64,000 bases of DNA from contig DDBO01000164.1 of the NCBI GenBank assembly GCA_002332755.1, positions 5,882 through 69,881 of the forward strand. The letters run 5' to 3'. Below, piece after piece: positions 6,489 to 49,310 of this stretch. The translations under genes and the position numbers were made by a program. Below the pieces are notes generated by a model. It made no database searches and was not told the origin of the DNA. It saw only the letters and a list, made by a program, of their open reading frames with translations. This DNA is from Bacteroidales bacterium UBA2030. GTDB lineage: Bacteria > Bacteroidota > Bacteroidia > Bacteroidales > TTA-H9. The stretch's first letter is position 1, and each line of letters begins with the position of its first letter.

Positions 6489-6542
6489 TATTGACCCGGG
6501 AGTAGATTGAATTCAATGGACAGTTTAGATCTAAATACTTGG

Positions 6543-6658: not shown

Positions 6659-6666
6659 TACTTTTG
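6659..6666 (+). promoter_or_regulatory. -7 box TActTTTG upstream of asnS
   Basis: Perfect TAnnTTTG, 30 nt upstream of ATG 6696. Confidence 0.55.
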
Positions 6667-6695
6667 CGCTTTGTTTCGCAAACAGCAACGAAACC

Positions 6696-13466: not shown

Positions 13467-14387
13467 TCAACCAACAACTTTATCGGAAAGAGACTTGAAG
13501 CCTTCCCCGAGTATTTCGCTCGCATCGGTAACAGTAACGAAAGCCCCCGGGTCAACCTGTCGAATATGATCCATCAGAAGCGAAAGCTCTCTGCGCGACA
13601 TGACCGTATGAATGATTTTTCGGGGCTGCCCCTGGTACATTCCGGCTCCTTCAATATAAGTCCCCCCCCGATGCAAATCATGAATAATTTTTTCTCGAAT
13701 GAGTTCAGGATGATTAGAAATAATGAATACCGATTTCTCGTAGCTAATACCTTCTACAACTACATCGATTACTCTGCCTGTAATAAAGATTACTATCCAG
13801 GAATAAAGCGGTATACGCCAATCTCCAAAAGTGGCCAAACCAATCAGCACGATGATAGAATCAACCACTATCAGAAGTTGACCTACCGGCCAGCGGGTGT
13901 ATTTAGCAATAATCATGGCTATAATATCGCTACCTCCGCTGGTTGCTCTGGCTCTAAAAATCAGACCCAATCCCAATCCCACAGTGACTCCGCCAAATAT
14001 ACAACTTAAAAGCACATCGTTGCTTAATCCTAAGGGGTCGTTTTCGCCTATAAACCAGGTTAGCAGCATCATAAAATTGGACATCAGGAGAGATCCAACC
14101 ACAGTTTTGGCCCCAAAATGAGCCCCAAGCAAACGCATTCCGATAATAATCAGAGGTATATCGAGGCTAAGACCCACCAGACCAATAGGAATGCCATCAG
14201 GCCAGATAGAAAACCACCCTCTGGTGAGATAATGCACAACAATACCAATACCATATACCCCACCAGGTACAATGTGGTAAGGATTGATAAAAAGCACAAA
14301 ACCGGCAGCCATGATAAATGCCCCGGCAACGATCATTGAATACGAAATCAAATTATCACGGGAGAAAACTTGCCGAATTTTTCCCAT
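13467..14387 (-). CDS. YitT-family membrane protein, tandem paralog
   Basis: It is collinear with the neighbour (RGGTYIEG...TVMSRRE...DPGAFVTVTDASEILGEGF). The start was moved to ATG 14385-14387 (MGKIRQVF). Confidence 0.8.
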   Translation of the reverse strand: MGKIRQVFSRDNLISYSMIVAGAFIMAAGFVLFINPYHIVPGGVYGIGIVVHYLTRGWFSIWPDGIPIGLVGLSLDIPLIIIGMRLLGAHFGAKTVVGSLLMSNFMMLLTWFIGENDPLGLSNDVLLSCIFGGVTVGLGLGLIFRARATSGGSDIIAMIIAKYTRWPVGQLLIVVDSIIVLIGLATFGDWRIPLYSWIVIFITGRVIDVVVEGISYEKSVFIISNHPELIREKIIHDLHRGGTYIEGAGMYQGQPRKIIHTVMSRRELSLLMDHIRQVDPGAFVTVTDASEILGEGFKSLSDKVVG

Positions 14388-14412
14388 AAGATGTATAAAT
14401 TTTAAAGAGGTG

Positions 14413-14420
14413 CAAAGATA
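14413..14420 (-). promoter_or_regulatory. -7 box TAtcTTTG for the YitT pair
   Basis: Perfect TAnnTTTG on the minus strand, 26 nt upstream of ATG 14387. Confidence 0.55.
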
Positions 14421-14497
14421 GAACAAAGCTTGGCGTTCTTAGAGCAATAATTTTAGCATTAAAACAAAGAAGAGAGAAAGGAAAACAATATTCGTTG

Positions 14498-14505
14498 TAT
14501 CTTTG
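14498..14505 (+). promoter_or_regulatory. possible -7 box TAtcTTTG for the porP-gldKLMN operon
   Basis: This is the only perfect TAnnTTTG I found in the 254-nt gap upstream of porP. It would imply a ~170-nt leader. Confidence 0.3.
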
Positions 14506-14680
14506 AGTTAATTTAGCAGCGTGTACCGAAGATTATACCCCTTTTCGAAACCTCTTGAGGGAAAAACAGGTATGATATATAGTATCACCTGAGAAAATCC
14601 GGGGATTTTGATGGGTGAATCATCGGTAAACGTTGCCTAATTCAACTATTCTGATTTACTTTATACCCGATTTCAGTGGG

Positions 14681-15652
14681 ATGGCAGAAATGAGAAAAAA
14701 ACGCATAGCGCCTGTAATAGTAGCGATAGCGTTGCTATTGTGGAGCAGTGTTGTGTGGTCGCAACAGGAACCCCAATACACCCATAATATGTTTACGCAA
14801 ATGGCTGTTAATCCGGCTTATGCCGGTAGCAGTGGCGATATCTCCGTTACGGGGTTGATGCGTGAGCAATGGCTGGGATTTAAAGACATGGATGGAAACA
14901 AAGTAGCCCCCCAGACTTTTCTGCTTTCAATGGATATGCCTGTAAGTTTATTAAGGGGGGGCATAGGTATTTCCATACTCAACGACAAACTAGGATTTGA
15001 GAAAAACATAGGATTACGCCTGAATTATGCCTATCGAACAGAATTCTGGAATGGGCAAATTGCTTTTGGTCCAGTCATAGGATTTTTAAATAAAACCATT
15101 GATTTTTCGATGTTCAAACCCACCCAGCCCGGAGATCCCATTCTTGCAACAGCAGAAGAGAAGACCATGATGCTCGATCTGGGTGTGGGGGTATTTTATG
15201 AAGTTCCCAAAAAGTATTATGCAGGAATTTCTACATCACAACTCCTGCAAACCGCGGCAACCCTTGGTATGGAAACCGCAAATTACAACCTGAAGCGCCA
15301 TTACTATATCCAGGGAGGTTTCTATTATGTTCTCCCGGATAATCCCTTCCTCCGTCTTGAACCCTCCATAATGTTCAAGACGGATTTTGTATCATCGCAA
15401 TTCGACCTGAACACCCTCGCTGTTTATAACGATAAATTTTGGGGAGGGCTTACCTACCGATATCAAGATGCGCTTGCATTATTGATAGGTATCAGTTACA
15501 AAAGTTTCAAGCTCGGTTATTCCTACGACATTACCACATCAAAGCTGGGTGGAGCAGGAAGTACAGGAAGCCATGAAATTGTTCTCAATTATCGGTTTAA
15601 ACTTGAGCTGGAAAAATCTCCACGAGGGTATCGTAACACACGCTATTTGTGA
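14681..15652 (+). CDS. porP: T9SS membrane protein PorP/SprF family
   Basis: The QQEPQYTHNMFTQMAVNPAYAGSSGD N-terminal signature follows a signal peptide, and the gene sits immediately upstream of gldK as in the Porphyromonas porP-porKLMN arrangement. The start is ATG 14681, or possibly 14690. Confidence 0.8.
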   Translation: MAEMRKKRIAPVIVAIALLLWSSVVWSQQEPQYTHNMFTQMAVNPAYAGSSGDISVTGLMREQWLGFKDMDGNKVAPQTFLLSMDMPVSLLRGGIGISILNDKLGFEKNIGLRLNYAYRTEFWNGQIAFGPVIGFLNKTIDFSMFKPTQPGDPILATAEEKTMMLDLGVGVFYEVPKKYYAGISTSQLLQTAATLGMETANYNLKRHYYIQGGFYYVLPDNPFLRLEPSIMFKTDFVSSQFDLNTLAVYNDKFWGGLTYRYQDALALLIGISYKSFKLGYSYDITTSKLGGAGSTGSHEIVLNYRFKLELEKSPRGYRNTRYL

Positions 15653-15733
15653 AATTGTTTTTACTTTTGCCTGTTTTGAGAATTTTGAAAGTGAAATACA
15701 TAGATGCTGACAAAACATAACCACCGGAATAAC

Positions 15734-17149
15734 ATGAAAAGACTGCTTTACCTGGTCATTGCTGCCGCAGTACTGAGCAGTTGTGGCAACACCGGAAACG
15801 GTGAGCTGACGGGTGTTCCCAACCGACCCAAGTTTTACCAGCCCGATCCCTACGGTATGACATTCATACCTCTGGGCAGTTTCACCATGGGAACTGGCGA
15901 TCAGGATGTACCTTATGCCAATGTTCATCAGCCCAAAACCATCTCGGTAGCGGCTTTTTATATGGATGAGACTGAAATAACCAACAATGAGTATCGTCAG
16001 TTTGTTTATTGGGTAAGGGATTCCATTGCACACACTATTTTGGGCAATGCAGGACCTGATTTTGGAGAACATTTTGTTTCGGACCGTCAGGGTCAGCCCA
16101 TACAGTTTGGCACTGCCAACCCCTACTATAAAATCAACTGGAAAGAGAAAATAGATTGGGAAGGGCGTAAGCTACAGGAAGGCACCCAAAACCCTCTCGA
16201 AGAACTATATCTTCCTGAAGAAGAACGCTTTTTCAGGAGAAAAGAGATCGATACGCGCAAACTCTTTTACCGGTATTTCTGGGTAGATTTACCCAAAGCC
16301 GCACGTCCTGAAAACCGCTATGAGTATAATCGCGACCAACAAGGCCGGATAACCGGTGAGGGGGGTACTTATCCTCAAAACATTGTAGCCGAAGGGAATC
16401 GCCGGGCATTTGTAAAAGAAGAAGTTGTGCCTGTGTATCCTGATACCCTCGTCTGGATAAGCGATTTCACTTATGCCTACAATGAACCTATGGCAAAAAC
16501 TTATTTCTGGCACCCGGCTTATGATAATTACCCTGTAGTTGGGGTTACCTGGAAGCAGGCCGAGGCTTTCTGCGTGTGGAGGACCGAATACATGAACAGC
16601 TACCTGATGACCCGAAAGCGTGAAACATTGGTAAATGATTTCAGGCTGCCTACCGAGTCGGAATGGGAATGGGCTGCCCGGGGAGGCAACGAGCTTAACC
16701 CTTATCCCTGGGGAGGTCCCTATCTGCGCAACCAGAAAGGTTGTTTCCTGGCCAACTTTAAACCCGGTCGTGGTAACTATGTGGCAGATGGTGGGCTATA
16801 TACTGTTATCGTTGCCCATTACCCCCCCAACGATTTTGGCCTCTACGACATGGCTGGTAATGTAGCCGAATGGACCAATAGTGCCTTCGACGAAAGCTCA
16901 TACAATTTTACCTGGGACCTCAATTCATCTTATACATACCACGCCAATTACGATGATCCGGCAGTAATGAAACGCAAAGTGGTTAGAGGGGGCTCGTGGA
17001 AGGATGTCAGCTACTTCCTGCAAGTAAGTACGCGCTCTTATGAATACCAGGATTCAGCCAGGTCGTTTATTGGCTTCCGATGCGTACAGTCTTATCTGGG
17101 TCGCAACAAAGACGATAACCCCGCTCGCTCGTCTGAAGTTTATAAATAA
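15734..17149 (+). CDS. gldK: T9SS/gliding lipoprotein GldK/PorK (FGE-sulfatase/SUMF1 fold)
   Basis: It has a lipoprotein signal MKRLLYLVIAAAVLSSC and SUMF1-type motifs (RLPTESEWEWAARGG, VVRGGSWKD). Operon position supports the call. Confidence 0.9.
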   Translation: MKRLLYLVIAAAVLSSCGNTGNGELTGVPNRPKFYQPDPYGMTFIPLGSFTMGTGDQDVPYANVHQPKTISVAAFYMDETEITNNEYRQFVYWVRDSIAHTILGNAGPDFGEHFVSDRQGQPIQFGTANPYYKINWKEKIDWEGRKLQEGTQNPLEELYLPEEERFFRRKEIDTRKLFYRYFWVDLPKAARPENRYEYNRDQQGRITGEGGTYPQNIVAEGNRRAFVKEEVVPVYPDTLVWISDFTYAYNEPMAKTYFWHPAYDNYPVVGVTWKQAEAFCVWRTEYMNSYLMTRKRETLVNDFRLPTESEWEWAARGGNELNPYPWGGPYLRNQKGCFLANFKPGRGNYVADGGLYTVIVAHYPPNDFGLYDMAGNVAEWTNSAFDESSYNFTWDLNSSYTYHANYDDPAVMKRKVVRGGSWKDVSYFLQVSTRSYEYQDSARSFIGFRCVQSYLGRNKDDNPARSSEVYK

Positions 17150-25944: not shown

Positions 25945-25952
25945 CAAAAATA
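25945..25952 (-). promoter_or_regulatory. -7 box TAttTTTG for efp-lpxD
   Basis: Perfect TAnnTTTG on the minus strand, 38 nt upstream of ATG 25907, inside the palindrome atttttgcaaaaat. Confidence 0.5.
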
Positions 25953-28396: not shown

Positions 28397-28843
28397 CTAA
28401 CGCTTTTTGCGAAAAAAATCTGTCATCAAAGAAGCGCACTCTGAGGCGCGTAAACCACTAACTACAAGGGTTTTGGGATGTAATAAACGTCCCTGAATGA
28501 GTGAATAACCCATTTTGGGATCGGGAGCTCCATAGACAACTTTACCCATTTGAGCCCAACCAAGTGCCGCTGCACACATAGGGCATGGTTCAATAGTAAC
28601 ATAAATAGTGCAATCGACCAGGTATTTAGCGCCAAGAAAATTCTCGGCTGCCGTTATGGCAATCATTTCGGCGTGGGCTGTGACGTCGTTGAGGCGCTCC
28701 GTCATATTATGCGCTCTGGCAATAATTTTACCATCGCATACAATTACAGCACCAATGGGAACCTCATCCTCAGCAGCAGCCAGTTTTGCTTCCTTAAGGG
28801 CTTCACCCATGTAATGCTCATCAGAAAATACACTAAACCCCAT
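28397..28843 (-). CDS. tadA: tRNA-specific adenosine deaminase
   Basis: It has CMP/dCMP-type zinc motifs HAEMIAI and PCPMCAAAL, is 148 aa long, and has the N-terminal MGEALKEAKLA...EVPIGAV context. Confidence 0.9.
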   Translation of the reverse strand: MGFSVFSDEHYMGEALKEAKLAAAEDEVPIGAVIVCDGKIIARAHNMTERLNDVTAHAEMIAITAAENFLGAKYLVDCTIYVTIEPCPMCAAALGWAQMGKVVYGAPDPKMGYSLIQGRLLHPKTLVVSGLRASECASLMTDFFRKKR

Positions 28844-29226
28844 TACTGTAGGTATTTATCAAGGGTTTGAAGTAAGAAGTCGAGAGAGATAGGTTTGGTC
28901 ATAAACTCGCTGCATCCTGCAGCCAAACTGTCTTTGGCATCTCCCGATTGAATATGCGCTGTTTGAGCTATAATGGGTAATGCAGGGAATTCTTCATGAA
29001 TAAGTTTAGAGGCCATGATGCCGTTCATCACAGGTAAATCAAGGTCCATAAAAACGAGGTCAGGAGGGTTGTTTCTGACGCTTTCTATTGCCTCAATACC
29101 AGTTCGGGCCCATATCAGGGTGGCTCCTGTTCGCCGGAGGGCAGCTGAAAAATAATGCCGGCTGGTTTCCGAATCTTCAGCAATGAGAATTACCTTACCC
29201 GTCCAGTTGTATTCTTTTTTAATCAT
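28843..29226 (-). CDS. single-domain response regulator (receiver only)
   Basis: 127 aa with a complete receiver signature: ED pair, phospho-acceptor D in LVFMDLDLP, T in AQTAH and K in MTKP. There is no output domain. Confidence 0.9.
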   Translation of the reverse strand: MIKKEYNWTGKVILIAEDSETSRHYFSAALRRTGATLIWARTGIEAIESVRNNPPDLVFMDLDLPVMNGIMASKLIHEEFPALPIIAQTAHIQSGDAKDSLAAGCSEFMTKPISLDFLLQTLDKYLQ

Positions 29227-30821
29227 GATTTTTGCGAAATTTTCTTTAGAATGCTAACCAAATCATTAATTCTAAAAGGCTTGCTGATGTAATCATCCAT
29301 GCCAATGGCTAAGCAACGTTCGCGATCGGCCTCGAATGAGTTAGCCGTCATGGCTATTATGGGGGTGTGTGTCCCTTTTTCAGCCTCCTCTGCACGTATA
29401 ATGGTGGTGGCCTCATAACCGTCCATTTCGGGCATCTGTATATCCATCAAAATTAAATCGTAGCAACTCTTACGAGCCATCTCCACTGCTTCCAGACCGT
29501 TTTTGGCAATATCAATCATGTGCCCAAACTTTTTCAAATTGGCCACCGCAACTTTCTGGTTAATAAGGTTATCCTCTGCCAGCAAGATGTGCAGGGGTTT
29601 CATTTGTGTTTCTATCACCTCCGCCTCGGGTTTTTCCTCTGGGATTTCGGAGGGTGGCACTTTTTCGAAAACAGCAGTAAACCAAAAAGTAGAACCTTTT
29701 CCCACCTCACTCTCTACCCCTATTTCTCCATCCATCATTTCGCATAAGCTTTTGGAAATGGCAAGTCCTAAGCCTGTACCCCCATATTTGCGGGTTGTAG
29801 AGGTATCAGCCTGTGAAAAAGCCTTGAATAACTTTTCCTTTCCTTCCGGTGAAATCCCGATTCCTGTATCAATTACTTTGAAAAGCAGCTTAACACTTTG
29901 GTCACCGTCTTTTTCAACCCCAACATCCACGGTTACGCTACCTTCATACGTAAACTTTATGGCATTATTTACGAGATTGGTTATAATTTGCTTTAAACGC
30001 AAAGGGTCACCCTTGATGTAACGAGGAACATTGTCTGCTAAAATGACGTTAAGGGCCACATTATTTTCATTAGCCCTGATAGTTAATATCTTAATTACCT
30101 CATCTATAGCCGCAGGGAGATTAAAAGCTATATTTTCCAGTTCAACCTGATTGGACTCAATTTTAGAAAAGTCTAGAATATCATTAATGATATTCAACAA
30201 ATTACGTCCTGAAGCGATAATAGTAGCAAGATAATCTTTTTGCTCTTCTGTGAGCGGTGTTTGAGCCAGAAGGTCAGCCATACCTATGATTCCATTCATA
30301 GGGGTACGGATTTCATGGCTCATATTGGCTAAGAAGATAGATTTTGCGCGGGTAGCAGCTTCCGCCTTTTCCTTGGCGATTCGATATTGCTCGCTAATGA
30401 TTTCCTTTTCGCGCACTAGCCGTGTCAACTCCCGTTTTTGCAGATAAAGATCAAGAAATACTTTAACCTTTCCTCTGAGAATACGTCCGTCGATAGGTTT
30501 AGAAATAAAGTCAACAGCCCCGGTTTCAATACCTTTAACAACATGAAAATCTTCCTTATAGATAGCTGAAACAAAGATAACAGGTAAGAATTTGCCCTTA
30601 GCTGTCTGCCGAATAAGGGTGACTGTTTCATAGCCATCCATTCCGGGCATTTGAATATCGATAATAGCTAAGGCAAAGTCATGGTTGAGAACTTTGGCAA
30701 TGGCTTCATTGCCACTGAGTGCCCTCACAAACTCAACATCGAAACCTTCGAGGAGAGTCTCCAACGAAATCAGGTTCTCCACCTTATCATCAACTATCAG
30801 TATTTGGGGTTTGGCTGACAT
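29223..30821 (-). CDS. hybrid histidine kinase, REC-HisKA-HATPase-REC
   Basis: It has an N-terminal receiver (AIIDIQMPGMDG), the H-box MSHEIRTPMNG, the G-boxes DTGIGI / GTGLGLAI, and a C-terminal receiver (LILMDIQMPEMDG). Its stop overlaps the next start (ATGA). Confidence 0.9.
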   Translation of the reverse strand: MSAKPQILIVDDKVENLISLETLLEGFDVEFVRALSGNEAIAKVLNHDFALAIIDIQMPGMDGYETVTLIRQTAKGKFLPVIFVSAIYKEDFHVVKGIETGAVDFISKPIDGRILRGKVKVFLDLYLQKRELTRLVREKEIISEQYRIAKEKAEAATRAKSIFLANMSHEIRTPMNGIIGMADLLAQTPLTEEQKDYLATIIASGRNLLNIINDILDFSKIESNQVELENIAFNLPAAIDEVIKILTIRANENNVALNVILADNVPRYIKGDPLRLKQIITNLVNNAIKFTYEGSVTVDVGVEKDGDQSVKLLFKVIDTGIGISPEGKEKLFKAFSQADTSTTRKYGGTGLGLAISKSLCEMMDGEIGVESEVGKGSTFWFTAVFEKVPPSEIPEEKPEAEVIETQMKPLHILLAEDNLINQKVAVANLKKFGHMIDIAKNGLEAVEMARKSCYDLILMDIQMPEMDGYEATTIIRAEEAEKGTHTPIIAMTANSFEADRERCLAIGMDDYISKPFRINDLVSILKKISQKS

Positions 30822-30830
30822 GGAACTGAG

Positions 30831-33800
30831 TTATTTGTGCAACCACACACGGATGAGGGACAGGAGTTTGTCAACATTTACCGGTTTGGAGATATAATCG
30901 CTTGCACCTGCAGCTATACAGCGATTGCGGTCTTCTTTCATTGCCTTCGCTGTAAGGGCTATGATGGGCAAATTTCGAAACTGAGGTATTTCTCTGATTT
31001 TTCGAATGGTATCATAACCGTCCATGACGGGCATCATAATATCCATAAGCACCAGATGGATGTCGGGCTCCTGATTGAGCATATCTATGGCCATCTGACC
31101 GTTTTCAGCAGCTCTGACAATAATTTCTTTTTCTTCGAGCACGCGGGTAAGGGCAATCACATTCCGCATATCGTCATCGACGATGAGAATTTTTTTGTTG
31201 CGGAAAATGGTATCCCTATCATGCAAGAAGCTGATGATTTCCTGTTGCTGGGGAGGCATTTCACTGACGACACGATGTAAGAAAAGAGCTGTTTCGTCGA
31301 GCAGGCGTTCTTCCGATTTCACGCCTTTAATAATAATAGAGTCTGTATATTGATGAAGCTCTTTATCTTCCTCGCGGGTGAGTTCGCGGCCAGTATATAC
31401 AATAACCGGAGGGGCTTTAAATTCAGGAGTATTTTTGATGGCCCGCAGCAATTCAAAGCCACTCATATCGGGCAAGCCTAAATCAAGTACCATGCAATCG
31501 AAATGCTTCGACCTTATGGCTTCCAAAGCAGCCTTTCCTGAATCGCACTCGGTAATCTTTATATCTTTTTCTCCAATGATGGTTTTGATGGATTTACGCA
31601 AGTTTTTATCGTCTTCAACCAGCAGAAGTTCACGGAGACCTCCGCTTATATAATGACCAATACGTTCGAAAGCAGAATCGAGCTGGTCAGGGTTGACGGG
31701 CTTAGTAAGATAACCAATTGCGCCCTTGCGGTAAGCTTCAAGGTCTTCATCGTAAGCCGACATGATATGCACAGGAATATGACGCAAGCTGGGGGTTTCC
31801 TTTAAACGATCAAGAACATCCCATCCGTTCATTCCAGGTAAATTGATATCGAGAATGATGGCAGCGGGCTTAAACCGGTTGGCCAATTCGAGCCCTTCTT
31901 CTCCTGTGGCGCTGGCAAGTACCTTAAATCCTTTTTCCCGAGCCTGTGCAGCCAGGACAGAAGCAAATGAAGCATCATCTTCAACAATAAGCAAAACCCT
32001 GTCGGCTGAAGTGATCAAGTTACGGTCATCGGGGATTGAATCTACTTTAGGGGGCTCGGGTGGAGTTTCTGCCAACAATGGGTCCTCATCAACAGGTTTG
32101 GAAGGGGGAGCAGGTGTTGTCGTTTGAGGTATGGGTTCAGGTGTGGGATTTACAATCTCTTTTTCTGGCATTTTCAAAGGCAGGTAAATAGTAAACCTGC
32201 TCCCTTTTCCCGGCTCACTTTCTAATTGGATTTCTCCGCCCAACAAACGTGCAAGTTCTTTAGAAATGCTCAAGCCCAAACCCGTGCCTCCGTATTTTCG
32301 TGAGGTACTTCCATCAGCTTGCTTAAATGCTTCAAAAATGAGGTCCTGCTTATCTTTAGGTATGCCTATACCGGTATCTGTTACCGAGAAAGCTATTACC
32401 GGACCTTTCTGAAGCGCGGGGATTACAAATTTATGATTCGGACCAGCCATTGAAATTTCAAAGGTAACAGATCCCTGACTGGTAAATTTAATGGCATTCG
32501 ACAAAAGGTTCTTCAGTATTTGCTCTAACCTCAGACGGTCGGTTACGAATTGTTCAGGGACGTCATCTGCAACCAAAACTCTAAATTCTAAGCCCTTTTG
32601 CGATGCAATATGGTTGAAATGCATTTTGACGTAGGAAGCCAGGGATTCGGTTTCCACTTTTTCGGGGTTTATATCCAAGCGACCGGCTTCTATCTTCGAT
32701 AAATCGAGAATATCGTTGATAAGCGTAAGCAGCTCATTGCCACTGTTATAGATAATTTGAGCAGCTTCAACCTGATCTGGTGTTAGGTTGCCTTTCTTAT
32801 TATCCATTAAACTCTTGCTTAAAATAAGAAGACTGTTGAGAGGGGTTCGCAGCTCATGCGACATGTTGGCCAGAAATTCCGATTTGTATTGGCTGGCCTT
32901 TTCCACCTCGCGGGCCTTACGTTCAATTTCAGCTTTAGCATTTTCAAGCTCCTGATTTTTAAGCGCAATGGCTGCCTTTTGCTGTTCGAGGATGCGTGTT
33001 TTTTCTTCCAACTCTTCATTGGTAACTCTCAACTCTTCCTGCTGGGCCTGCAGACTGGCTTCTGATTCTTTAAGTGCTTTGGCCTGTTGTTCAAGCTCTT
33101 CGTTGGCCTCTCGAAGCTCCTCCTGCTGTACCCTCAGCTCTTCAGCCATTTCCTGGGTAGCAACCAGCAAACGTTTCATCTCCTGGCGAGCCTGAATGGA
33201 ATGGAAAGCTATAGCAATGCTCTCCTCTACCTGGTCGAGGAAAGTACATTGCAAATCTGTCCAGTGACGTGTGGATGCCAGCTCCATAACCCCAATAACA
33301 TTGCCATGAAACAGGAATGGCTGTAAAATTACCTGAGGGGCTTCTCCTTCTGCCAGACCACTCTGTATGTAGATAAATTCAGCAGGCACATTATCGAAAA
33401 TAATTACCTTTTTCTCAAGGGCCGCCTGCCCTACCAATCCTTCTCCAAGTTTAAATTCAGTAATGGGTGATTTACGATGGCTAAAGGCATAAGTGCCCGT
33501 CAACTTTAGTACATCTCCTTGCACAAGATAAAGAGCACCAGCCTGAAATTTAAGGATTTGTGCCAATTTAGAAAGCAGTTCTCCTGCCAAATCCTCTGCA
33601 CTTTTTTCTCCTCTCAATACATTTCCGGTTTCAACGATAGAAGTCTGCAACCAGCTGTTTCCCGCATTGACCTCCGACAACTTTTTCAGGTTGTTGCGCA
33701 TCTGAATTAGAGCATTTCCAAGCAAATCCTCCTTGCTCAGCGGAGTATATGGTACCTCAAGATTGCCTTCACCAATAGCCAGAGCAAAATCGGTATTGGT

Positions 33801-34991
33801 TTTTAAAGCTCGAGCCAGACGCTGAAGGGCTTTGCTCATCTGTCCCAATTCATCCTTTGTCTTTACAATAACATGCTCAACATCGGGCAAGGCACCTCTG
33901 GCGAGCTCCTCAAGATGCTGTGTGGTTTGTTTAAGCGGGTTAGTGATTTTCCGGCTAATATAAATCACTACCAGACTCATAAATATAATGCTAAGAATAC
34001 CTGCGCCTATGGTTTTCCAAAAGGTTAGTTTTGCTTCTCTCAATACAGTATCCTTGGGAATAGCAATGCCCAATGCCCATGGGGTACCTGTTTGTCCAAT
34101 ACTCAAGGGTACAATAGAAAGCTCATATTCTTGGCGATTAAGTTTACAAAAATAACTTCCCTGAAAAGCCTCACCTTTGGCAATTTTCTGGTCAAGAAGT
34201 TCAATAGAGACCAAATCGCCAAAGACAGAATCAATGGGTGCCCCCACAAACTTCTTATTGGGATGAGCCACAAAGACTCCGTTGTTACTGATAAGAAATA
34301 CCATTCCATCGCCCATGGGACGGATACCCCGAAATTTCTGTTGAAGCTGATCGAGTGAGGCATCAACGCCCACCACCCCTAAAAATTTACCATCGCGAAT
34401 GATGGGGGTAATAAGGCTGGTTTGCAATATGGCATCCTCTGGCCGGCCGGTAAATGAATACTTATAAGGATTGAGAATGGTTTCCCTGAGTCTAACTTTG
34501 GGCAGGGTAAAATAATCTCCCTCGAAAAGAGCAGCATCGGGCGCAGAGACTTCTAACTTAATAGTATTACCTTGCCTGTAAAAAGTGGGTGAAAAATTAC
34601 CAATACGGGTAGAGCCGGGTGCCATTATATTTTTGCCGTCAAGCCTGTCGATGGTATAGGGTTCCCAGATGGTCCACACAGACAGAAAATCCACATTGTC
34701 TCTCAAAACATGTTTTAACATGTCCATATAAACCTGCCGGCGGGAAGCTTCAGGAATACTTTCGAATTGGCTAAAAACCTGCGCCAACGTTCTGGAAGCA
34801 TCCAGGTAAATCTCAAGTTCAGCCCTCGTGTAATTACCGTATTGGCCTGCCAGGGCAGTAGAGGTAACCCTTGTATGATTAAGAGATGCCTTTCGGCTTG
34901 CAAATCCGATAAACGCAATGGTTGCACCTGAAGTGATTAAAAGCGTGGCAATTATGTAAAACAACAAACGCCTGTTCAAGTTTCGTTTCAT
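30831..34991 (-). CDS. 1386-aa hybrid sensor histidine kinase: periplasmic Cache-like domain, TM, HAMP, GAF, coiled coil, HisKA-HATPase, Pro-rich linker, three receiver domains
   Basis: Two TM segments flank a ~300-aa extracytoplasmic domain. It has a QQEELRxxNEELE coiled coil, the H-box MSHELRTPLNS and the G-boxes DTGIGI / GTGLGLSI. The three receivers have intact Asp pockets (IILDINLPGMNG, MVLDLGLPDMSG, VLMDIMMPVMDG). Confidence 0.9.
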   Translation of the reverse strand: MKRNLNRRLLFYIIATLLITSGATIAFIGFASRKASLNHTRVTSTALAGQYGNYTRAELEIYLDASRTLAQVFSQFESIPEASRRQVYMDMLKHVLRDNVDFLSVWTIWEPYTIDRLDGKNIMAPGSTRIGNFSPTFYRQGNTIKLEVSAPDAALFEGDYFTLPKVRLRETILNPYKYSFTGRPEDAILQTSLITPIIRDGKFLGVVGVDASLDQLQQKFRGIRPMGDGMVFLISNNGVFVAHPNKKFVGAPIDSVFGDLVSIELLDQKIAKGEAFQGSYFCKLNRQEYELSIVPLSIGQTGTPWALGIAIPKDTVLREAKLTFWKTIGAGILSIIFMSLVVIYISRKITNPLKQTTQHLEELARGALPDVEHVIVKTKDELGQMSKALQRLARALKTNTDFALAIGEGNLEVPYTPLSKEDLLGNALIQMRNNLKKLSEVNAGNSWLQTSIVETGNVLRGEKSAEDLAGELLSKLAQILKFQAGALYLVQGDVLKLTGTYAFSHRKSPITEFKLGEGLVGQAALEKKVIIFDNVPAEFIYIQSGLAEGEAPQVILQPFLFHGNVIGVMELASTRHWTDLQCTFLDQVEESIAIAFHSIQARQEMKRLLVATQEMAEELRVQQEELREANEELEQQAKALKESEASLQAQQEELRVTNEELEEKTRILEQQKAAIALKNQELENAKAEIERKAREVEKASQYKSEFLANMSHELRTPLNSLLILSKSLMDNKKGNLTPDQVEAAQIIYNSGNELLTLINDILDLSKIEAGRLDINPEKVETESLASYVKMHFNHIASQKGLEFRVLVADDVPEQFVTDRLRLEQILKNLLSNAIKFTSQGSVTFEISMAGPNHKFVIPALQKGPVIAFSVTDTGIGIPKDKQDLIFEAFKQADGSTSRKYGGTGLGLSISKELARLLGGEIQLESEPGKGSRFTIYLPLKMPEKEIVNPTPEPIPQTTTPAPPSKPVDEDPLLAETPPEPPKVDSIPDDRNLITSADRVLLIVEDDASFASVLAAQAREKGFKVLASATGEEGLELANRFKPAAIILDINLPGMNGWDVLDRLKETPSLRHIPVHIMSAYDEDLEAYRKGAIGYLTKPVNPDQLDSAFERIGHYISGGLRELLLVEDDKNLRKSIKTIIGEKDIKITECDSGKAALEAIRSKHFDCMVLDLGLPDMSGFELLRAIKNTPEFKAPPVIVYTGRELTREEDKELHQYTDSIIIKGVKSEERLLDETALFLHRVVSEMPPQQQEIISFLHDRDTIFRNKKILIVDDDMRNVIALTRVLEEKEIIVRAAENGQMAIDMLNQEPDIHLVLMDIMMPVMDGYDTIRKIREIPQFRNLPIIALTAKAMKEDRNRCIAAGASDYISKPVNVDKLLSLIRVWLHK

Positions 34992-35038
34992 GGTAGGCTG
35001 ATTGAATGCTTAAAATTACAAAATACATCAAAGCATTT

Positions 35039-36466
35039 TCAACGAGGAATCTTTTTTCTAAAAAGCATTCCCACACCAAGGGTTAAAAATGATACAACCA
35101 TTGCCGGAATAAAGGATACCTTGGGGTCAATAATCCCCGGCTTTGTCATACCCAACACAAAAAGCAAAACATTAACAAGGAATCCGCTGAAAATGCTGAC
35201 AAGGGCTTCCTTGCGATGCAGGGCGGGATGTTTGTGAAGTAAGGCCAGAAGGGTTGCGGGAACAAAAACGGCAATGGTTCCAATACCCACTACCATAAGG
35301 TTTACAATACCCGGAAGAATCAGGGCAAGCAATAAAGCCATTACACCAAAGACAATACTTACCAGGCGGATGAGCGACATTTGCCTCCCTGAGGACATCT
35401 GACGGCCGGCATCTCGGTATTTCCAACCCGCAAAATCGCGCACAGCAGAGATGGAAGCAACATTCAGAAAACTATCGGCCGACGACATAAGCGCTGCCAT
35501 AAGTCCTACAATGGCAAAACCCATGGCAAATGGACCCGTATTCCGCTCTAAAAATGCATACACCATATCCTCTGATAACTGGCCATCGCCAAGCTTTAAA
35601 CGCATGGCCATGCCTGCCAAAGGGAAAATCACGTAAAAAGGTAGCATCCCCAGGGCCGACCAATAATTCATTCGAACAGCGGCCTTTTCGTTGCGTGCAG
35701 ACAAAATGCGTTGCCATATGTCCATTCTGACGAGCACCGATGGTGCAATGAATAACGGCAAGCCTACCAAAAAAAGCCATCCATACGACATGCCATTCAA
35801 CATTTCTTTGGGAAGCAACCTTAGCAGTGACAGTCCCTCCGTTTCGGCATCAATGCCGGGAATGAAAATGAAAAGAATCATCAACAGAATAAAGAAAAAC
35901 TGAAGCATATCTGTATAAATAACGCCAGCCAGTCCAGCAAAAGCTGTGTAAGCAATTACTATGATACATGAGAGTATGGCAGCAGGTAAATATTCTATTC
36001 CTAAAACATGTTTGAGAACAGAAGCCATTGCAACAAACTGAGCAGCCAGTAGAAAAAAGAAGATAAATACATTGACTCCTGTAACCATTCCAGAGAAAAG
36101 CTTGCGAAAAGCCGGAGAGCCCGTTTGGGTAAAAGTTTTATTAAGATATTGAGGATAACTATATATTTCGCGTTTCTCGCCTAATTGTCGGATATGGGCT
36201 GCAAATCGGGCAACGATAAAAAAACCCAAAACATAAGCAATACCAATACCTAATGCCGCAAACCCCGATTCGTAGCCCATGGCAATAAGGCCTACAGATG
36301 TCCCTCCTCCTACAAAGGTGGATAGGGTTGTGAATACCAGGAGTGCCGTCCCTGTCTTTCGATTATTGACAAGATAATGGTCCAGGTCGCGATGACGAAT
36401 ATGGCGTAAGGTGAACAAGATCACCAAAATAGCGTAGAATATTAACCAAAAAAGGAGCCAGTTCAT
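35039..36466 (-). CDS. sodium:solute symporter (SSF/SLC5) family transporter
   Basis: 475 aa with about 13 hydrophobic helices and an SSF-like layout. It ends 47 nt upstream of the large kinase on the same strand. Confidence 0.8.
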   Translation of the reverse strand: MNWLLFWLIFYAILVILFTLRHIRHRDLDHYLVNNRKTGTALLVFTTLSTFVGGGTSVGLIAMGYESGFAALGIGIAYVLGFFIVARFAAHIRQLGEKREIYSYPQYLNKTFTQTGSPAFRKLFSGMVTGVNVFIFFFLLAAQFVAMASVLKHVLGIEYLPAAILSCIIVIAYTAFAGLAGVIYTDMLQFFFILLMILFIFIPGIDAETEGLSLLRLLPKEMLNGMSYGWLFLVGLPLFIAPSVLVRMDIWQRILSARNEKAAVRMNYWSALGMLPFYVIFPLAGMAMRLKLGDGQLSEDMVYAFLERNTGPFAMGFAIVGLMAALMSSADSFLNVASISAVRDFAGWKYRDAGRQMSSGRQMSLIRLVSIVFGVMALLLALILPGIVNLMVVGIGTIAVFVPATLLALLHKHPALHRKEALVSIFSGFLVNVLLFVLGMTKPGIIDPKVSFIPAMVVSFLTLGVGMLFRKKIPR

Positions 36467-36490: not shown

Positions 36491-36498
36491 CAAAATTA
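36491..36498 (-). promoter_or_regulatory. -7 box TAatTTTG for the symporter/kinase unit
   Basis: Perfect TAnnTTTG on the minus strand, 25 nt upstream of ATG 36466. Confidence 0.55.
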
Positions 36499-37365: not shown

Positions 37366-37373
37366 TACCTTTG
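37366..37373 (+). promoter_or_regulatory. -7 box TAccTTTG for prfA-pyrF
   Basis: Perfect TAnnTTTG, 26 nt upstream of ATG 37399. Confidence 0.55.
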
Positions 37374-43107: not shown

Positions 43108-44664
43108 ATGGAAAAAATTCGCATTTTATGGGCTGACGATGAAATTGATATGCTCAAAGCTCATGTCATTTTCTTGGAGCAAAAAGGGTATGAAGTAGTT
43201 TCTACCAACAACGGCAACGAAGCCCTCGAATTAATACGCACCGAAGCTTTCGATATCATATTTCTCGACGAAAACATGCCGGGACTCACCGGATTGGAAA
43301 CCCTGGCAGAGATTAATAACTTAAAACCAGGCATTCCCGTTGTGATGATTACGAAAAGCGAGGAAGAAAGCATCATGGAGGATGCCATAGGTGGCAATAT
43401 TTCGGATTACCTTATTAAGCCCGTAAAACCCAATCAGATATTACTAACCTTGAAAAAAAATCTTGAAAAGCGTGAATTGATTAGCCAAAAGACAACCATG
43501 GCCTATCAACAGGCTTTCAGGGAGATAGGTATGGAAATCAGCACTTCGCTTGACTATAATGGTTGGATGGAGCTTTACCGACGGATTGTCAACTGGGAAC
43601 TACGCCTGCAGCAGACCCGCGAGGACGGAATGCTTGAAATAGTACGTATGCAAAAGGAAGAGGCCAACAACGTTTTTTCTCGCTACTATGAAGACAATTA
43701 CCCCTTGTGGTTGAAAGGTAAAAGCCAGGAAAAACCTGTGCTCTCTCATACTTTGATAAGGGAAAAGCTGTTCCCGTTGCTTGAAAAAGAATCGCAGCTG
43801 TTCCTAATAGTTATCGACAACCTTCGGTATGATCAATGGAAAACCATACAACCGGTAATTGAAGAGCTTTTCAGAGTTGAAAAAGATGAGATGTATTGCA
43901 GTATACTTCCTACCACCACGCAATTTGCCAGAAATGCACTCTTTGCCGGATTAATGCCTTCCGAAATTGAAAAGAAATATCCCGCCTGGTGGATAAACGA
44001 ATGGGATGAAGGCACGAAGAATCAGTATGAAGAACAACTCTTTGCGGAACTGTTGAAACGTTTTGGGAGAAATATCAAATTTTCGTTCAATAAAGTACTC
44101 AACCTAACTGCGGGAACCCGCCTAGTGGACAATCTGCCCAATCTTTTGGGCAATCAGCTTAATGTGGTAGTGTATAATTTCGTGGATACCCTTTCGCACG
44201 CGCGCACTGAGATGGAAATCATCAGAGAGCTGGCCAACGACGAGGCCGCCTACCGTTCTCTCACACTTTCATGGTTCGAGCATTCACCTCTGCAAGATAT
44301 TATGCGCTTTCTGTCCGAAAAACGTATTCCTGTCGTTATCACAACCGATCATGGAAGTATAAGAGTTCAAAATGCAGTAAAAGTAGTTGGCGACCGCGAA
44401 ACCAATGTCAATCTGAGATTCAAGGCAGGTAAGAATTTAAATTTCAACAAAAAGGAATGCTTTCATGTTAGAAACCCGGAAGACGTTTTCTTACCCCGCC
44501 AAAACGTAACTACGTCCTACATCTTTGCTCGAGGCAATGATTTCTTCGCCTATCCCAATAATTTCAATTATTATTCAAATTATTACCGGAATACTTTTCA
44601 ACATGGAGGCATATCTCTGGAAGAAATTATGGTGCCTTTTGTATTTCTGAAACCTAAAGTGTAA
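43108..44664 (+). CDS. porX: PorX-type response regulator (receiver plus PglZ/alkaline-phosphatase-superfamily domain)
   Basis: It has an N-terminal receiver (ILWADDEIDMLKAHVIFLEQKGY...IIFLDENMPGLTG...LIKPV) followed by a ~390-aa PglZ-like domain (VIDNLRYDQW..., TTDHGS). The 518-aa architecture is characteristic of T9SS regulator PorX. Confidence 0.85.
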   Translation: MEKIRILWADDEIDMLKAHVIFLEQKGYEVVSTNNGNEALELIRTEAFDIIFLDENMPGLTGLETLAEINNLKPGIPVVMITKSEEESIMEDAIGGNISDYLIKPVKPNQILLTLKKNLEKRELISQKTTMAYQQAFREIGMEISTSLDYNGWMELYRRIVNWELRLQQTREDGMLEIVRMQKEEANNVFSRYYEDNYPLWLKGKSQEKPVLSHTLIREKLFPLLEKESQLFLIVIDNLRYDQWKTIQPVIEELFRVEKDEMYCSILPTTTQFARNALFAGLMPSEIEKKYPAWWINEWDEGTKNQYEEQLFAELLKRFGRNIKFSFNKVLNLTAGTRLVDNLPNLLGNQLNVVVYNFVDTLSHARTEMEIIRELANDEAAYRSLTLSWFEHSPLQDIMRFLSEKRIPVVITTDHGSIRVQNAVKVVGDRETNVNLRFKAGKNLNFNKKECFHVRNPEDVFLPRQNVTTSYIFARGNDFFAYPNNFNYYSNYYRNTFQHGGISLEEIMVPFVFLKPKV

Positions 44665-44890: not shown

Positions 44891-44898
44891 TAATTTTG
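44891..44898 (+). promoter_or_regulatory. -7 box TAatTTTG for the cargo gene
   Basis: Perfect TAnnTTTG, 23 nt upstream of ATG 44921. Confidence 0.55.
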
Positions 44899-47710
44899 TA
44901 AGGACAAGAAATTCAGACATATGAAAAAATTCTCCCTTACCCTGTTTATAATAGTTACGACCTTAGGTTTACGAGGTCAAGATAATCCAGTAAATCCGGT
45001 AATTACCGGAGAAGGCCGTTTTTTAGGAATTTCTCAGCCCTTGCGTGATTTACCGGTAATAACCGAAGAAGATTGGACAGGGATGAAAAACCGGGCCGAG
45101 CAAAAAAGATTGAATCCAAAATTGCAAAAACGAGAGTATCCCTATGCATCCACAGCCCTGCCCAAAGGTACTGACCCCGTATGGCAAAATTCCATGGGTG
45201 TTACTGAAAACTCAACAGAACTCATTCAGAGCTTCGACGGCCAAACCTCACCTTATTATCCCCCCGACTGCAACGGCACGGCAGGTCCCAATCATTATGT
45301 ACAGACCATCAATACCACCTTTGCGGTCTATAGCAAAACGGGCACGCTGTTGGCAGGCCCTACAAATCTGAATACTCTATATACAGGTCTTCCAGGTGCT
45401 ACCTACAACGATGGTGACCCTATCGTTCTCTACGATGAACAAGCCAACCGATGGCTTATCGCAGAATTTTCAGTGAGTGGTTCCAACGATTACATGCTCA
45501 TTGCAGTATCTACCACGAGCGATCCAACAGGTACTTGGTATAAATATAGCTTCGACGTAGCCGATATGCCCGACTATCCCAAATTTGGAATATGGCAAGA
45601 CGGATATTATATGGGAACCAATAACCCCTCAGGAGCAGATATTTATGTGTTTGAACGGACAGTTATGCTTGCTGGAGGAACTAACCCTAAAATGGTAGGT
45701 TTTGACAATCCTTGGCGTCCGACAACTATCGACGGTTTTGTTTGCGTTCCTCCCGTAGATAATGATGGAACCTTTGCTCCTGCAGGCAGTCCAGGAATTT
45801 TTATTGCCTTTAACGACGATGCCATTGGCGGTGGCAGCGACCAGTTGTGGATTTACGAACTAACGATAAATTGGAACAATACGGCGGCCTCTACATTCGT
45901 CAGAACACAGCAAATTAATGTAGCTCCTTTCGATTCAAATTTCGGCAACACATGGAACAATGTTACCCAACAGGGCACTTCCCAAAAAGTAGATGCCATA
46001 CCCCAGGTGATCATGAATGTTCCACAATACAGAAACTTTGGCAGCTATCAAACACTGGTGGCATGTCATACCGTAGATGTTGATGGCACCGACCACGCTG
46101 GCATAAGATGGTATGAGTTGCGAAAAACTGGCTCAACCTAGTCGGTAAGACAGCAAGGAACATATGCCCCTGATGCCCACAATCGCTGGATGGGAAGCAT
46201 CGCCATGAATGCTGCAGGAGAAATTGCTTTGGGTTATAGTATAAGCAGCAGCACTCTATACCCCGGTATTCGCTACACCGGACAGACTCAGGGCAGCTAT
46301 GCCGCAGGTAATAGTACGATGGACGTACCTGAAGTCACAATTCATACGGGACAATATTCTCAAACCGGCAGTAACCGTTGGGGCGACTATTCCCTGATGT
46401 GTGTTGACCCCTCTGATGATGAAACCTTCTGGTTTACTACGCAATACATTGGTTCAGGTGGCAGCCGCAAAACCAAAATTGCCTCATTTCAGATAGGACC
46501 TGTCGCCCCAACTGCATCTTTTACGGCCAGCACCACCTTACCTTGCTTGGGGCAAACCGTCACTTTTATCGATCAGAGCACTGCTGGTCCCACTTCATGG
46601 CAATGGACTTTTACTCCTAATACAGTGACTTATGTGAATGGAACCAGCTCCACCTCTCAAAACCCACAAGTACAATTTAATGCCTATGGCAACTACACTG
46701 TCTCACTCACCGTAACAAATGCAGTAGGTAGTAATACTAACACTCAGAACAATTATATTCAGGTGAATGAGGCTAACGCCGACTTTACAGCCTCACCCAC
46801 TACTGTTGTAGTAGGCTATAGCACAACTTTTACAGATGCTTCTACATGTTCGGTAAATTCATGGAGTTGGAACTTCGGTAGCGGTGCAAACCCTGCTACG
46901 GCTTCTACACAAGGACCTCATACAGTAACATACACTACTACAGGACAGAAAACAATAAGTCTGACGGTCAATGGCAATATCACCAAAACAAAAAACAACT
47001 ACATCAATGTTATTTCAGATAATATAAACATGCAAAATGGAGTCATATATACATGCTCTGGTACTTTTTATGACCCGGGTGGGCCTTCAGCCAACTATGC
47101 AAATAATCTGGATTATACCTTGACTTTCTTCCCGGGTACCACAGGCAACAGCGTTAAAGTAACCTTTACAAGCTTCAACCTAGAAGCCAGCAGCACATGT
47201 AGTTATGATTACCTCAAGATATACAATGGACCCACTACTGCTTCACCTCTTATTGGGACCTATTGCGGAACCAACAGCCCTGGAATTGTCACAGCAAACA
47301 ATTCTGATGGGGCACTCACTTTTGTATTTCATAGTGATCAATCGGTGACAGCCTCCGGCTGGGTAGCCACGATTAATTGTATAAGTACGGTAACAGTACC
47401 CAATCCGGCTAATCTTGTAGCCACTGCTTCGGGTACTTCTCAAATTGACCTTTCCTGGGCTCTTAATGCCAATAACGATAACGTGTTGCTGGCATGGTCA
47501 CCGACATCCACATTTGGAACACCGGTTAATGGAGCAACTTATACACCGGGAAGCACCTTGCCGGGAGGAGGCACCGTTCTTTACACCGGTACAAACACCG
47601 CTTACAGCCACACGGGTCTGACACCAGCCACCACCTATTACTATAAAGCCTATTCTTTCAATACTTCCAATATTTACTCTGCGGGTATTACAGCTAATGC
47701 TACCACCCAA

Positions 47711-49018
47711 GCCGTTACGCTATCTGTAACTCCATCAAACCAAAATGTTCCTGCGGCTGCAGGAAACACTTCTTTCAATGTTACATGCAACGGCAATTGG
47801 ACAGCCACAAGCAATCAAACCTGGTGCACAGTAACCCCATCTGGCACGGGTAATGGAAGCCTCGTCGCTACTTATACAGAAAACACATCCATAACACCAC
47901 GTATTGCTACAATCACAGTTAATGCTGTGGGTGCCCCACCGGTTTCTGTAACTGTTACCCAGGAGGGTGCAGCCCCTTATGTAAACGTTACCCCACCCAA
48001 CCATAACGTGTCGTCCTCAGCTGGATTTGTTGATTTTAATATTACCTCTAACACATCTTGGACTACCGTTAGCAACCAAGCCTGGTGCACAGTAAGTCCT
48101 CCCTCTGGTAATGGAAATGGCATTTTAACTGCGGTTTATGAGGAAAACACTACTCTTAATCAGCGAGTAGCAACAATCACAGTAACAGCCGCCGGAGCCA
48201 CACCCGTCAGCGTAACCGTGACTCAAGCCGGTGCCGGGCCATTCTTATACGTTGAACCTCAAAATCAGAATGTGGCAGCCACCTCGGGAAGTGTTTCATA
48301 CAATGTCACATCCAACACCACTTGGACAGCTGTGAGCAACCAAAACTGGTGTACAGTAACCCCTTCTGGCACAGGAAATGGTACGCTTGTGGCAACTTAT
48401 ACAGAAAATACAAGCACATTCCAGAGAATTGCTGAAATAACGGTTAGTGCCTCGGGTGTCAATCCTGTCATAGTTACACTTACCCAAGCTGGTGCAACAC
48501 CTACCCTTAATGTTATGCCTGACAACCAGAACGTAAGTGCTTCTGCAGGAAGCACTTCTTTTGATATAATTAGTAATACCAACTGGAATGCTGTCAGCAA
48601 TGTATCTTGGTGTAATGTTGCTCCTTCAACGGGCAATGGCAATGGTACAATAATTGCCACTTATGAAGAAAACACCAGCGTTCAAAGCCGAGTAGCATTT
48701 ATAACGGTGACAGCATCAGGAGCAGTACCTGTAACAGTAACGGTATCACAAGCCGGAGCTGCCCCGTGGCTCAATATTACTCCACAGAGTCAGACAGTAG
48801 GTGGTGCAGCAGGTACTTCTATATTCGACATTACCAGCAATACCTCATGGATAGCTTCGAGTGATGCTCCTTGGTGCACTGTTACCCCTGCAGGAACAGG
48901 TAATGGCATTCTGCAAGCCGACTATGAGGAAAACGCCACGGCTGAAACACGCACTGCCAATATCCTTGTTACTCCTGCCGGCGGCAACCCCCAATTGGCA
49001 CAACTTATTCAGCTACCT
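47711..49018 (+). repeat. five tandem BACON-like coding repeats (~88 aa, 261-267 nt period)
   Basis: Repeat starts are at 47711, 47978, 48242, 48503 and 48767. Each contains N-x-S/T-W-T/N-A-x-S-N-x-x-W-C-T-V-x-P-x-x-G-N-G...Y-x-E-N-T-S...R-x-A-x-I-T-V...V-T-V-T-Q-x-G. Confidence 0.8.
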
Positions 49019-49051
49019 TTGGGTGTTGGAGTTAGCAAAATTGAAGCCCTA

Positions 49052-49282
49052 ATCCATATCTATCCCAATCCTTCTCATGGACGCTTCAGCATAACCACAC
49101 CGGGTAAACGTATTATCAGTATTGAAATTTCTGTATTTGATGCTTCTGGTAGAAAAATTCAACATGCTTTGCTGGAGGGCAAAGAGAGTTATGTGATAGA
49201 CCTGAGCAATGTGCCCGCCGGTGTTTATACAGCAATGCTGACCACAGAAAATCAGACGATTTACAGAAAATTAGTAGTGCAA
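49052..49282 (+). other. T9SS C-terminal sorting domain (type A CTD) of the cargo protein
   Basis: The last 77 aa are IHIYPNPSHGRFSITTPG...ISVFDASGRKI...LSNVPAGVYTAMLTTENQTIYRKLVVQ, which is a typical Por secretion tail. Confidence 0.85.
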
Positions 49283-49310
49283 TAAAATTCTGACTCAATT
49301 CAAATCTTCA

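Follow-up and report, generated by a model that had tools for sequence, protein, structure and literature searches.

A run of five tightly packed genes lies at positions 28397–36466 of a 64,000-nucleotide (64-kb) stretch from the Bacteroidales bacterium UBA2030 (contig DDBO01000164.1; the whole analysed stretch is termed the window). All five are on the minus strand. In order of transcription they encode a solute symporter of the SSF family, a membrane-bound hybrid histidine kinase of 1386 aa with three attached receiver (REC) domains, a second kinase of 532 aa with a receiver at each end, a lone receiver of 127 aa, and a tRNA adenosine deaminase-like protein of 148 aa encoded by a tadA-like gene (Table 1). 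An earlier note, made from the sequence itself, treated the run as a single unit and drew attention to its lack of a histidine phosphotransfer (HPt) domain and of an output domain. Comparison with related loci gives another picture: the run is most simply seen as a conserved symporter–tadA pair plus an acquired signalling cassette, and not as a five-part machine.

The positions, spacings and domain orders given in the note agree with the open reading frame (ORF) list and with Pfam. By the coordinates, the first two junctions are gaps of 47 and 9 nt, and the last two are overlaps of 4 nt (ATGA) and 1 nt (TAATG). Both overlaps are directly legible in the sequence, and TAATG joins the lone-receiver gene to the tadA-like gene. 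No terminator-like site is found in any of the four junctions, as had been stated. With NCBIfam models, the symporter shows a weak likeness to PutP and PanF, and the top model for the 148-aa protein is TadA at 117.5 bits, which is under the 150-bit cut-off. The genes flanking the run are housekeeping genes: pdxJ, prfA and pyrF on one side, and a radical-SAM gene, an ABC ATPase gene, efp and lpxD on the other. A second ORF with a cytidine/dCMP-deaminase fold, of 175 aa, is present in the same window at 59353–59880 (+).

Table 1. Features of the five-gene run, other features of the window, and inserts at the symporter–tadA junction in other loci.
Feature	Position	Strand	Details
SSF-family solute symporter	35039–36466	minus	475 aa; Pfam SSF 61.5 bits
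CfcA-type membrane hybrid kinase (predicted type)	30831–34991	minus	1386 aa; Pfam
Second kinase, REC-kinase-REC	29223–30821	minus	532 aa; Pfam
Single-domain (lone) receiver	28843–29226	minus	127 aa; Response_reg the sole Pfam domain, above cut-off
tadA-like tRNA adenosine deaminase	28397–28843	minus	148 aa; Pfam cytidine-deaminase fold
Periplasmic double-Cache sensor domain of 1386-aa kinase	34026–34874	minus	Pfam dCache_1 47.3 bits
Coiled-coil signalling helix of 1386-aa kinase, residues 604–700	32892–33182	minus	repeated QQEELRxxNEELEE heptads
Receiver A1 of 1386-aa kinase (D1048)	31644–32000	minus	own class, 47% mean identity
Receiver A2 of 1386-aa kinase (D1170)	31266–31634	minus	own class, 47% mean identity
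Receiver A3 of 1386-aa kinase (D1317)	30834–31196	minus	own class, 60%; best conserved of the three
TAnnTTTG box upstream of symporter	36491–36498	minus	
Other TAnnTTTG examples	37366–37373; 44891–44898; 25945–25952	plus; plus; minus	
REC-PglZ protein, PorX-like	43108–44664	plus	518 aa; 6.6 kb from the run, adjoins the T9SS cargo gene
T9SS-secreted cargo	46190–49285	plus	1031 aa; PKD, CUB, five BACON, C-terminal Por_Secre_tail
Inserts at the SSF–tadA junction, other loci	L097 5988–7923; L098 3395–5331; L100 8268–10204; L150 774–3026; L088 5188–5962; L107 4233–4988		

The evidence for insertion comes from the symporter. A metagenome scan yielded 80 loci, 60 of which are long enough downstream to be evaluated; the symporter matches have 47–66% identity, apart from three distant ones at 28–31%. 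In 36 of the 60 orthologous loci, tadA is the very next gene on the same strand, within 150 nt, and in about seven more it follows an insert of 0.4–2.2 kb. The kinase comes directly after the symporter in one locus only (L081), which is from the lineage of the window (66% identity in the symporter and 65% in the kinase). The cassette is therefore seen as an insertion. The three signalling genes stand between the symporter and tadA in the window, in L081 and in two of the loci found with the kinase, L001 and L002; on the short contig L003 the symporter lies directly before a kinase match. Other lineages have unrelated inserts at this junction, i.e. a pair of 313-aa and 273-aa genes, a 737-aa gene, or ORFs of 113–123 aa, and it looks like a recurrent insertion point. 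In two sister cassettes, L004 and L005, the lone receiver comes first, followed by the kinase and then REC-kinase-REC, and both reside in other genomic contexts. No symporter or tadA gene is found near these two, and none of the distant relatives of the kinase has an SSF neighbour. Read most simply, symporter and tadA form an ancestral pair that tolerates insertions at its junction, and the signalling cassette is one of these. Neither gene of the pair belongs to the cassette by descent, and both are passengers; the proposal of a single five-gene unit does not survive this comparison, as the signalling genes separate the pair solely in the window's narrow lineage.

All five genes are nevertheless probably transcribed from the symporter promoter. 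With the Bacteroidetes −7 box, TAnnTTTG, as a guide, a box of sequence TAATTTTG is found 24 nt upstream of the symporter ATG, which is one of about ten start codons across the window with TAnnTTTG 19–37 nt before them. No such box is found at promoter distance upstream of the other four genes of the run. TAnnTTTG is a far better guide to promoters in this stretch than the sigma-70 consensus; a scan for the latter, which is uninformative for Bacteroidota, showed no enrichment (20 found vs 18.8 expected). The tadA gene is generally essential, and co-transcription therefore tells little about a shared function.

The 1386-aa kinase shows, in Pfam order, dCache_1, HAMP, GAF, HisKA and HATPase_c domains and three Response_reg domains. 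Its full architecture, including hydrophobic transmembrane (TM) segments at residues 9–31 and 325–347, is TM-dCache-TM-HAMP-GAF-coiled coil-HisKA(H712)-HATPase-REC(D1048)-REC(D1170)-REC(D1317). The two TM segments flank the dCache domain, which is therefore assigned to the periplasm. This domain matches the chemoreceptor ligand-binding domain 9heh (E 1e-35) and the Methanosarcina kinase sensor domains 3li8/3lib in the PDB, and these matches show the fold only and not the ligand. The 532-aa protein has the Pfam order Response_reg, HisKA, HATPase_c, Response_reg. The H-box is kept in both kinases (H712 and H169), and the N, G1, F and G2 boxes are legible in both translations.

Relatives of the 1386-aa kinase were collected by a scan of one genome per species, which gave 80 loci (L001–L080). 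Full-length relatives that include the dCache domain are found in metagenome-assembled genomes (MAGs) of Bacteroidales at 86%, 61% and 48% identity, in a Chlorobiota MAG at 46%, and in two Desulfobacterota-type MAGs (labelled Deltaproteobacteria/Desulfobacteraceae) at 40%. Residues 331–1386, from HAMP to the last receiver, align at 40–50% identity to proteins of many phyla, and the taxa include Desulfobacterota, Paenibacillus, Gammaproteobacteria, Planctomycetota, Acidobacteriota and Chloroflexota. The coiled coil, with its EELxxxNEEL/QQEELRxxNEELEE repeats, is almost invariant across the family, with or without linked genes for CheR and CheB. Exactly three receivers are present in 73 of the 75 relatives that could be delimited. 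By these features, the kinase is assigned to a widespread family of the form sensor-HAMP-GAF-coiled coil-HisKA-HATPase-REC-REC-REC.

The receivers were classified by alignment of 313 receiver domains from the family loci and analysis of column identities. All six receivers of the window keep the acidic pair, the phospho-accepting Asp (D1048, D1170 and D1317 in the first kinase, D55 and D460 in the second, D61 in the lone receiver), the Thr/Ser and the Lys. The earlier count of six receivers and two kinase cores thus stands; by alignment and motif boxes all six are catalytically intact and both cores are competent. The three attached receivers, A1, A2 and A3, each fall in a class of their own (Table 1), and identity to other receiver classes is about 22%. 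Every position in the triplet is its own orthologous class, and therefore the triple receiver is ancient and differentiated rather than a product of recent duplication. In the A1 and A3 classes every catalytic residue is intact in 74 of 74 proteins. The A2 class keeps the phospho-Asp in 70 of the 74 and the acidic pair in about 55, and is degenerate in some relatives; A2 is for this reason probably regulatory.

The neighbours of the family are informative as to partners. In at least 44 of 58 evaluable loci, a neighbouring gene on the same strand encodes a protein that begins with a receiver. A receiver-first kinase with HisKA and HATPase domains is present in 27, often with a C-terminal receiver as well, and a receiver-first protein that is not a kinase in 22; a few loci carry both kinds. 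Ten of the non-kinase neighbours were scanned, and nine have a GGDEF domain, in some with EAL, HD or PAS, and one an AraC domain (the domain sets are GGDEF, PAS-GGDEF-EAL, GGDEF-HD, HisKA-REC-GGDEF and AraC). The N-terminal receivers of these partners form one class, whatever the effector. The 532-aa protein, with the layout REC(D55)-coiled coil-HisKA(H169)-HATPase-REC(D460), has a partner-class receiver at its N-terminus, with a mean identity of 48% to the receivers of REC-kinase partners, 43% to those of REC-GGDEF-type partners and 20–25% to other classes. By this membership, the 532-aa protein is the likely cognate partner downstream of the first kinase, and we infer that it is the direct target.

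Two loci with Desulfobacterota-type labels (again Deltaproteobacteria/Desulfobacteraceae), L010 at 14808–16490 (+) and L014 at 5042–6712 (+), have a partner of the form REC-HisKA-REC-GGDEF, with the phospho-acceptor helix but without the ATPase domain. It is possible that this is a built-in phosphotransfer module that replaces HPt.

In most relatives, two genes with products of about 275 and about 195 aa come after the kinase gene, and Pfam identifies them as CheR and then a CheB methylesterase without a receiver. CheR is present in 33 of the 58 loci, CheB in 30 and both in 25. Neither was found in a six-frame translation of the whole window searched with hidden Markov models made from 36 CheR and 21 CheB sequences encoded beside related kinases, nor in the flanks of L001, L002 and L005. 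Another Bacteroidales member, L009, does have the CheR/CheB pair. In L004, a Bacteroidales MAG locus with one of the sister cassettes, a CheB-like gene of 377 aa lies at 1505–2638 (−), about 8 kb from the cassette and near ORFs of 706 and 699 aa; some Bacteroidales members therefore encode Che-type enzymes.

The lone receiver has orthologues in L001, L002, L004 and L005. Across the family, lone receiver genes are found in eight loci, and a REC-kinase partner is present in all eight. They are absent from all 18 loci in which the sole partner is a receiver-first non-kinase, mostly of GGDEF type. Random placement would give this split in about 2% of cases, with phylogeny ignored. The best PDB match of the 127-aa receiver is DivK, a single-domain regulator that acts through binding kinases. 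Both the association with REC-kinase partners and the likeness to DivK fit phosphorylation of the lone receiver by the second kinase, and the lone receiver (D61) may either end the pathway as acceptor or serve that kinase as a phosphate sink.

The lack of HPt and of classical output domains was borne out. A Pfam scan, which included a search for cryptic HPt domains, shows neither kind of domain at E<0.1 in the five proteins. After domains are assigned, the sole long stretches left are the 97-aa coiled coil, which has no His, and a 57-aa Pro-rich linker; neither is long enough for a four-helix HPt, and a hidden HPt is therefore unlikely. Pfam covered 28 of the 53 ORFs of the window, i.e. the five proteins and 23 others that include all ORFs under 250 aa; no HPt is found in the 23, and no PP2C domain in the 28. 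A search with the HPt pattern HxxKG gave a single match, which falls within the D55 receiver of the second kinase and hence is not an HPt. In the relatives, 62 small neighbours on the same strand, pooled and scanned with Pfam, revealed no recurring family. HPt is present in at most one of these 62 and in one of four Pfam-scanned REC-kinase partners. The REC-kinase partner with the HPt is the orthologous one in L043 (Thermotogaceae), and phmmer with its HPt domain found nothing in the window and no further significant match. The partner in L022 (Thiotrichaceae), at 5365–7359 (+), has a C-terminal tail of 106 aa without a domain, which might be a divergent HPt.

Systems with similar properties have been described in other bacteria. 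CfcA of Pseudomonas putida (PP_3761) is a membrane-bound hybrid kinase in which a periplasmic CHASE domain, flanked by two TM helices, is combined with a cytoplasmic GAF domain, the kinase core and three receivers (bioRxiv 10.1101/2024.11.25.625174). Its gene is the first of cfcABCDE, in which cfcB and cfcC are a CheR/CheB pair that does not serve chemotaxis; CfcD has the receiver closest in sequence to that of CfcR, an orphan regulator of the form REC-PAS-GGDEF-EAL, and H496 of CfcA is needed for CfcR activity (PMC4951495). The window kinase shares with CfcA the periplasmic sensor between two TM segments, the GAF domain, the kinase core and the three receivers. Both clusters include a receiver-bearing protein (CfcD in P. 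putida), and in the CfcA system the phospho-His is needed for activation of a receiver-first regulator, with no HPt invoked. The gene order kinase, CheR, CheB and REC-X of cfcABCDE is also that of relatives of the window kinase, some of which have a REC-PAS-GGDEF-EAL protein like CfcR. There are differences. CfcA has a CHASE3 sensor and the window kinase a dCache; CheR and CheB are part of the cfc cluster, whereas they are missing from the cassette and from the entire 64 kb; and the target in P. putida is a GGDEF/EAL regulator, whereas the window has a kinase and a lone receiver in that role and no GGDEF/EAL regulator. The comparison of the window's partner receiver with the CfcD/CfcR kind is with CfcD as described in print.

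RsbK of Bacillus cereus has the order CHASE3-HAMP-GAF-S-helix-kinase-REC and no HPt; its S-helix is methylated by the CheR-like RsbM, its receiver is an inhibitory element, and direct phosphorylation of the REC-PP2C protein RsbY has been proposed (PMC4574943). The succession of sensor, HAMP, GAF, signalling helix, kinase and receiver is the same in the window kinase, which also lacks HPt, and the coiled coil at residues 604–700 is the predicted counterpart of the methylatable S-helix. RsbK differs in having one receiver instead of three, in a REC-PP2C partner that controls sigma B where the window has REC-HisKA-HATPase-REC, and in the adjacent methyltransferase gene, of which there is no equivalent in the window. 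A third system, from Rhodospirillum centenum, is a parallel in wiring. There, biochemical work has shown that CheA3 phosphorylates a receiver of the kinase CheS3, and that CheS3~P alone phosphorylates the single-domain CheY3 (PMC3868531). As in the cassette, a first kinase acts on a receiver of a second and the second on a single-domain receiver; there is no HPt protein, and both kinases bear receivers. CheA3, however, is of the CheA type and fed by chemoreceptors, whereas the window kinase is a membrane sensor of the HisKA type. There is no homology past the common domains, and this is an analogy and not family membership.

In the light of these systems, the absence of HPt and output domains is ordinary for a system of the CfcA/RsbK type. 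The earlier idea that it is an anomaly falls away, as direct His-to-Asp transfer is the published model for such kinases (PMC4951495; PMC4574943). The statement that the unit has no output needs revision as well: the effector of the partner is a kinase here and GGDEF/EAL in relatives. The second kinase would itself be the output domain at the first step, where no HPt is required, and this answers the puzzle for that step.

The interpretation favoured here, which is held to be probable though well short of secure, is that of a three-gene kinase-kinase-receiver cassette of the CfcA/RsbK type, with a dCache sensor and without linked CheR/CheB, inserted between the symporter and tadA and operating as a direct H712–D55 cascade. 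A periplasmic ligand would bind the dCache domain, and the signal, carried by way of HAMP, GAF and the long coiled coil, would lead the kinase core to autophosphorylate on H712. The three attached receivers would modulate or drain the H712 phosphate. From H712 the phosphate would go directly to D55, in the N-terminal partner-class receiver of the second kinase. That kinase (H169) would thereby be switched, and would then pass phosphate on to D61 of the lone receiver, to D460 of its own C-terminal receiver, or to both. The lone receiver would work through protein contact or as a sink, and the whole route would be without HPt.

Several points weigh against this interpretation. The kinase-receiver part of the 532-aa protein resembles the BarA, TorS, ArcB and LuxQ models, and also EvgS; BarA, TorS, ArcB and LuxQ all hand phosphate on via HPt. 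The orthologous partner in L043, at 13788–15743 (+), is REC-HisKA-HATPase-REC-Hpt, with a Pfam Hpt score of 42.8 bits. The likeness to HPt-dependent kinases and the L043 domain make an HPt branch from D460, unlinked to the cassette, a possibility, and an unlinked HPt and a distal regulator may lie beyond the window. The case for the 532-aa protein as partner consists of gene neighbourhood and receiver-class similarity, and that for the CfcA/RsbK family of architecture, neighbourhood and phylum-spanning homologues rather than sequence alignment to either protein. Co-transcription is deduced from spacing and one promoter motif; inside the coding sequences of both kinases lie four more TAnnTTTG matches, from which tadA or the receiver gene could be expressed.

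A classical His-Asp-His-Asp phosphorelay is the first alternative, and it is a tentative one. The HPt and the output regulator would be encoded elsewhere in the genome, as with LuxU or HptB. One or both kinases would feed this HPt from their C-terminal receivers, the HPt would in turn phosphorylate a distal regulator with a DNA-binding or enzymatic output, and the lone receiver would stand to one side of the main route. The best-scoring models for the kinase-receiver part of the second kinase and the Hpt of L043 both speak for it, and the 64 kb inspected are a portion of the genome. On the other hand, HPt does not recur near the family, it is missing from the five proteins and from the 23 other ORFs scanned, and the published models of CfcA and RsbK have each kinase pass phosphate directly from His to Asp. 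Such a relay is compatible with the cascade as an extra branch.

Somewhat less probable is the possibility that the attached and lone receivers are all phosphate sinks that signal nothing further, and that the outputs are changes in the kinase/phosphatase activity of the two kinases toward an orphan regulator. The RsbK receiver is an inhibitory element and not a relay step (PMC4574943), and the degeneracy of A2 in some relatives points the same way, as does the fact that the closest solved relative of the lone receiver, DivK, acts on kinases. However, A1 and A3 have kept all catalytic residues throughout, and no orphan regulator of the partner class is found in the window. The strict tracking of second kinases by lone receivers fits a dedicated acceptor and a sink equally. 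The earlier suggestion was of a branched phosphorelay or sink network with output by protein contact: a single receiver as last member that acts by contact or as a sink remains plausible, and the anomalous five-gene phosphorelay holds up only in part.

An improbable extension of the cascade is that a CfcA-type kinase of non-chemotactic Bacteroidales lost CheR/CheB, kept a putative methyl-accepting coiled coil unchanged and drives an HPt-free cascade, with the DivK-like end receiver controlling a Bacteroidota-specific process such as gliding, the type IX secretion system (T9SS) or surface polysaccharide purely by contact. On this view, the place of the cassette upstream of the essential tadA would require constitutive transcription. 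The link to motility or T9SS that had been offered as an example was not found, and a PorX-like REC-PglZ protein encoded nearby does not have a receiver of the partner class. The REC-PglZ architecture is that of the T9SS regulator PorX of Porphyromonas. As a candidate for the missing output this protein was ruled out, its receiver being about 26% identical to the partner class. A receiver-bearing ORF of 529 aa is present in L001 at the same relative position as the REC-PglZ gene. The adjoining cargo gene encodes a Por_Secre_tail, and the organism is therefore a T9SS-bearing Bacteroidota.

CbrA and CrbS consist of an SSF-family transporter fused to a histidine kinase, and the notion that the symporter is a flux-reporting co-sensor of this kind within a five-gene functional unit is very unlikely: the 47-nt same-strand gap without terminator, the single promoter motif upstream of the symporter, and the symporter-kinase order in L001, L002 and L081 (with the L003 contig) are in its favour, but the ancestral adjacency of symporter and tadA (36 of 60 loci, against one with the kinase) removes its comparative basis and leaves tadA outside the system, unrelated inserts occupy the same junction in other lineages, L004, L005 and all distant relatives do without an SSF neighbour, the kinase has a periplasmic dCache sensor of its own, and symporter and kinase are separate genes made adjacent by insertion and not a fusion.

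For this genome, the practical consequence is small. The comparison predicts a wiring, H712 to D55 and then H169 to D61, for a previously unannotated Bacteroidales system, and places this system in a family of the CfcA/RsbK type that is spread over phyla and has barely been studied. For the family in general, the findings indicate that the three attached receivers are separate, anciently fixed classes, that partners are defined by one receiver class independent of the effector domain, and that lone receivers accompany second kinases.

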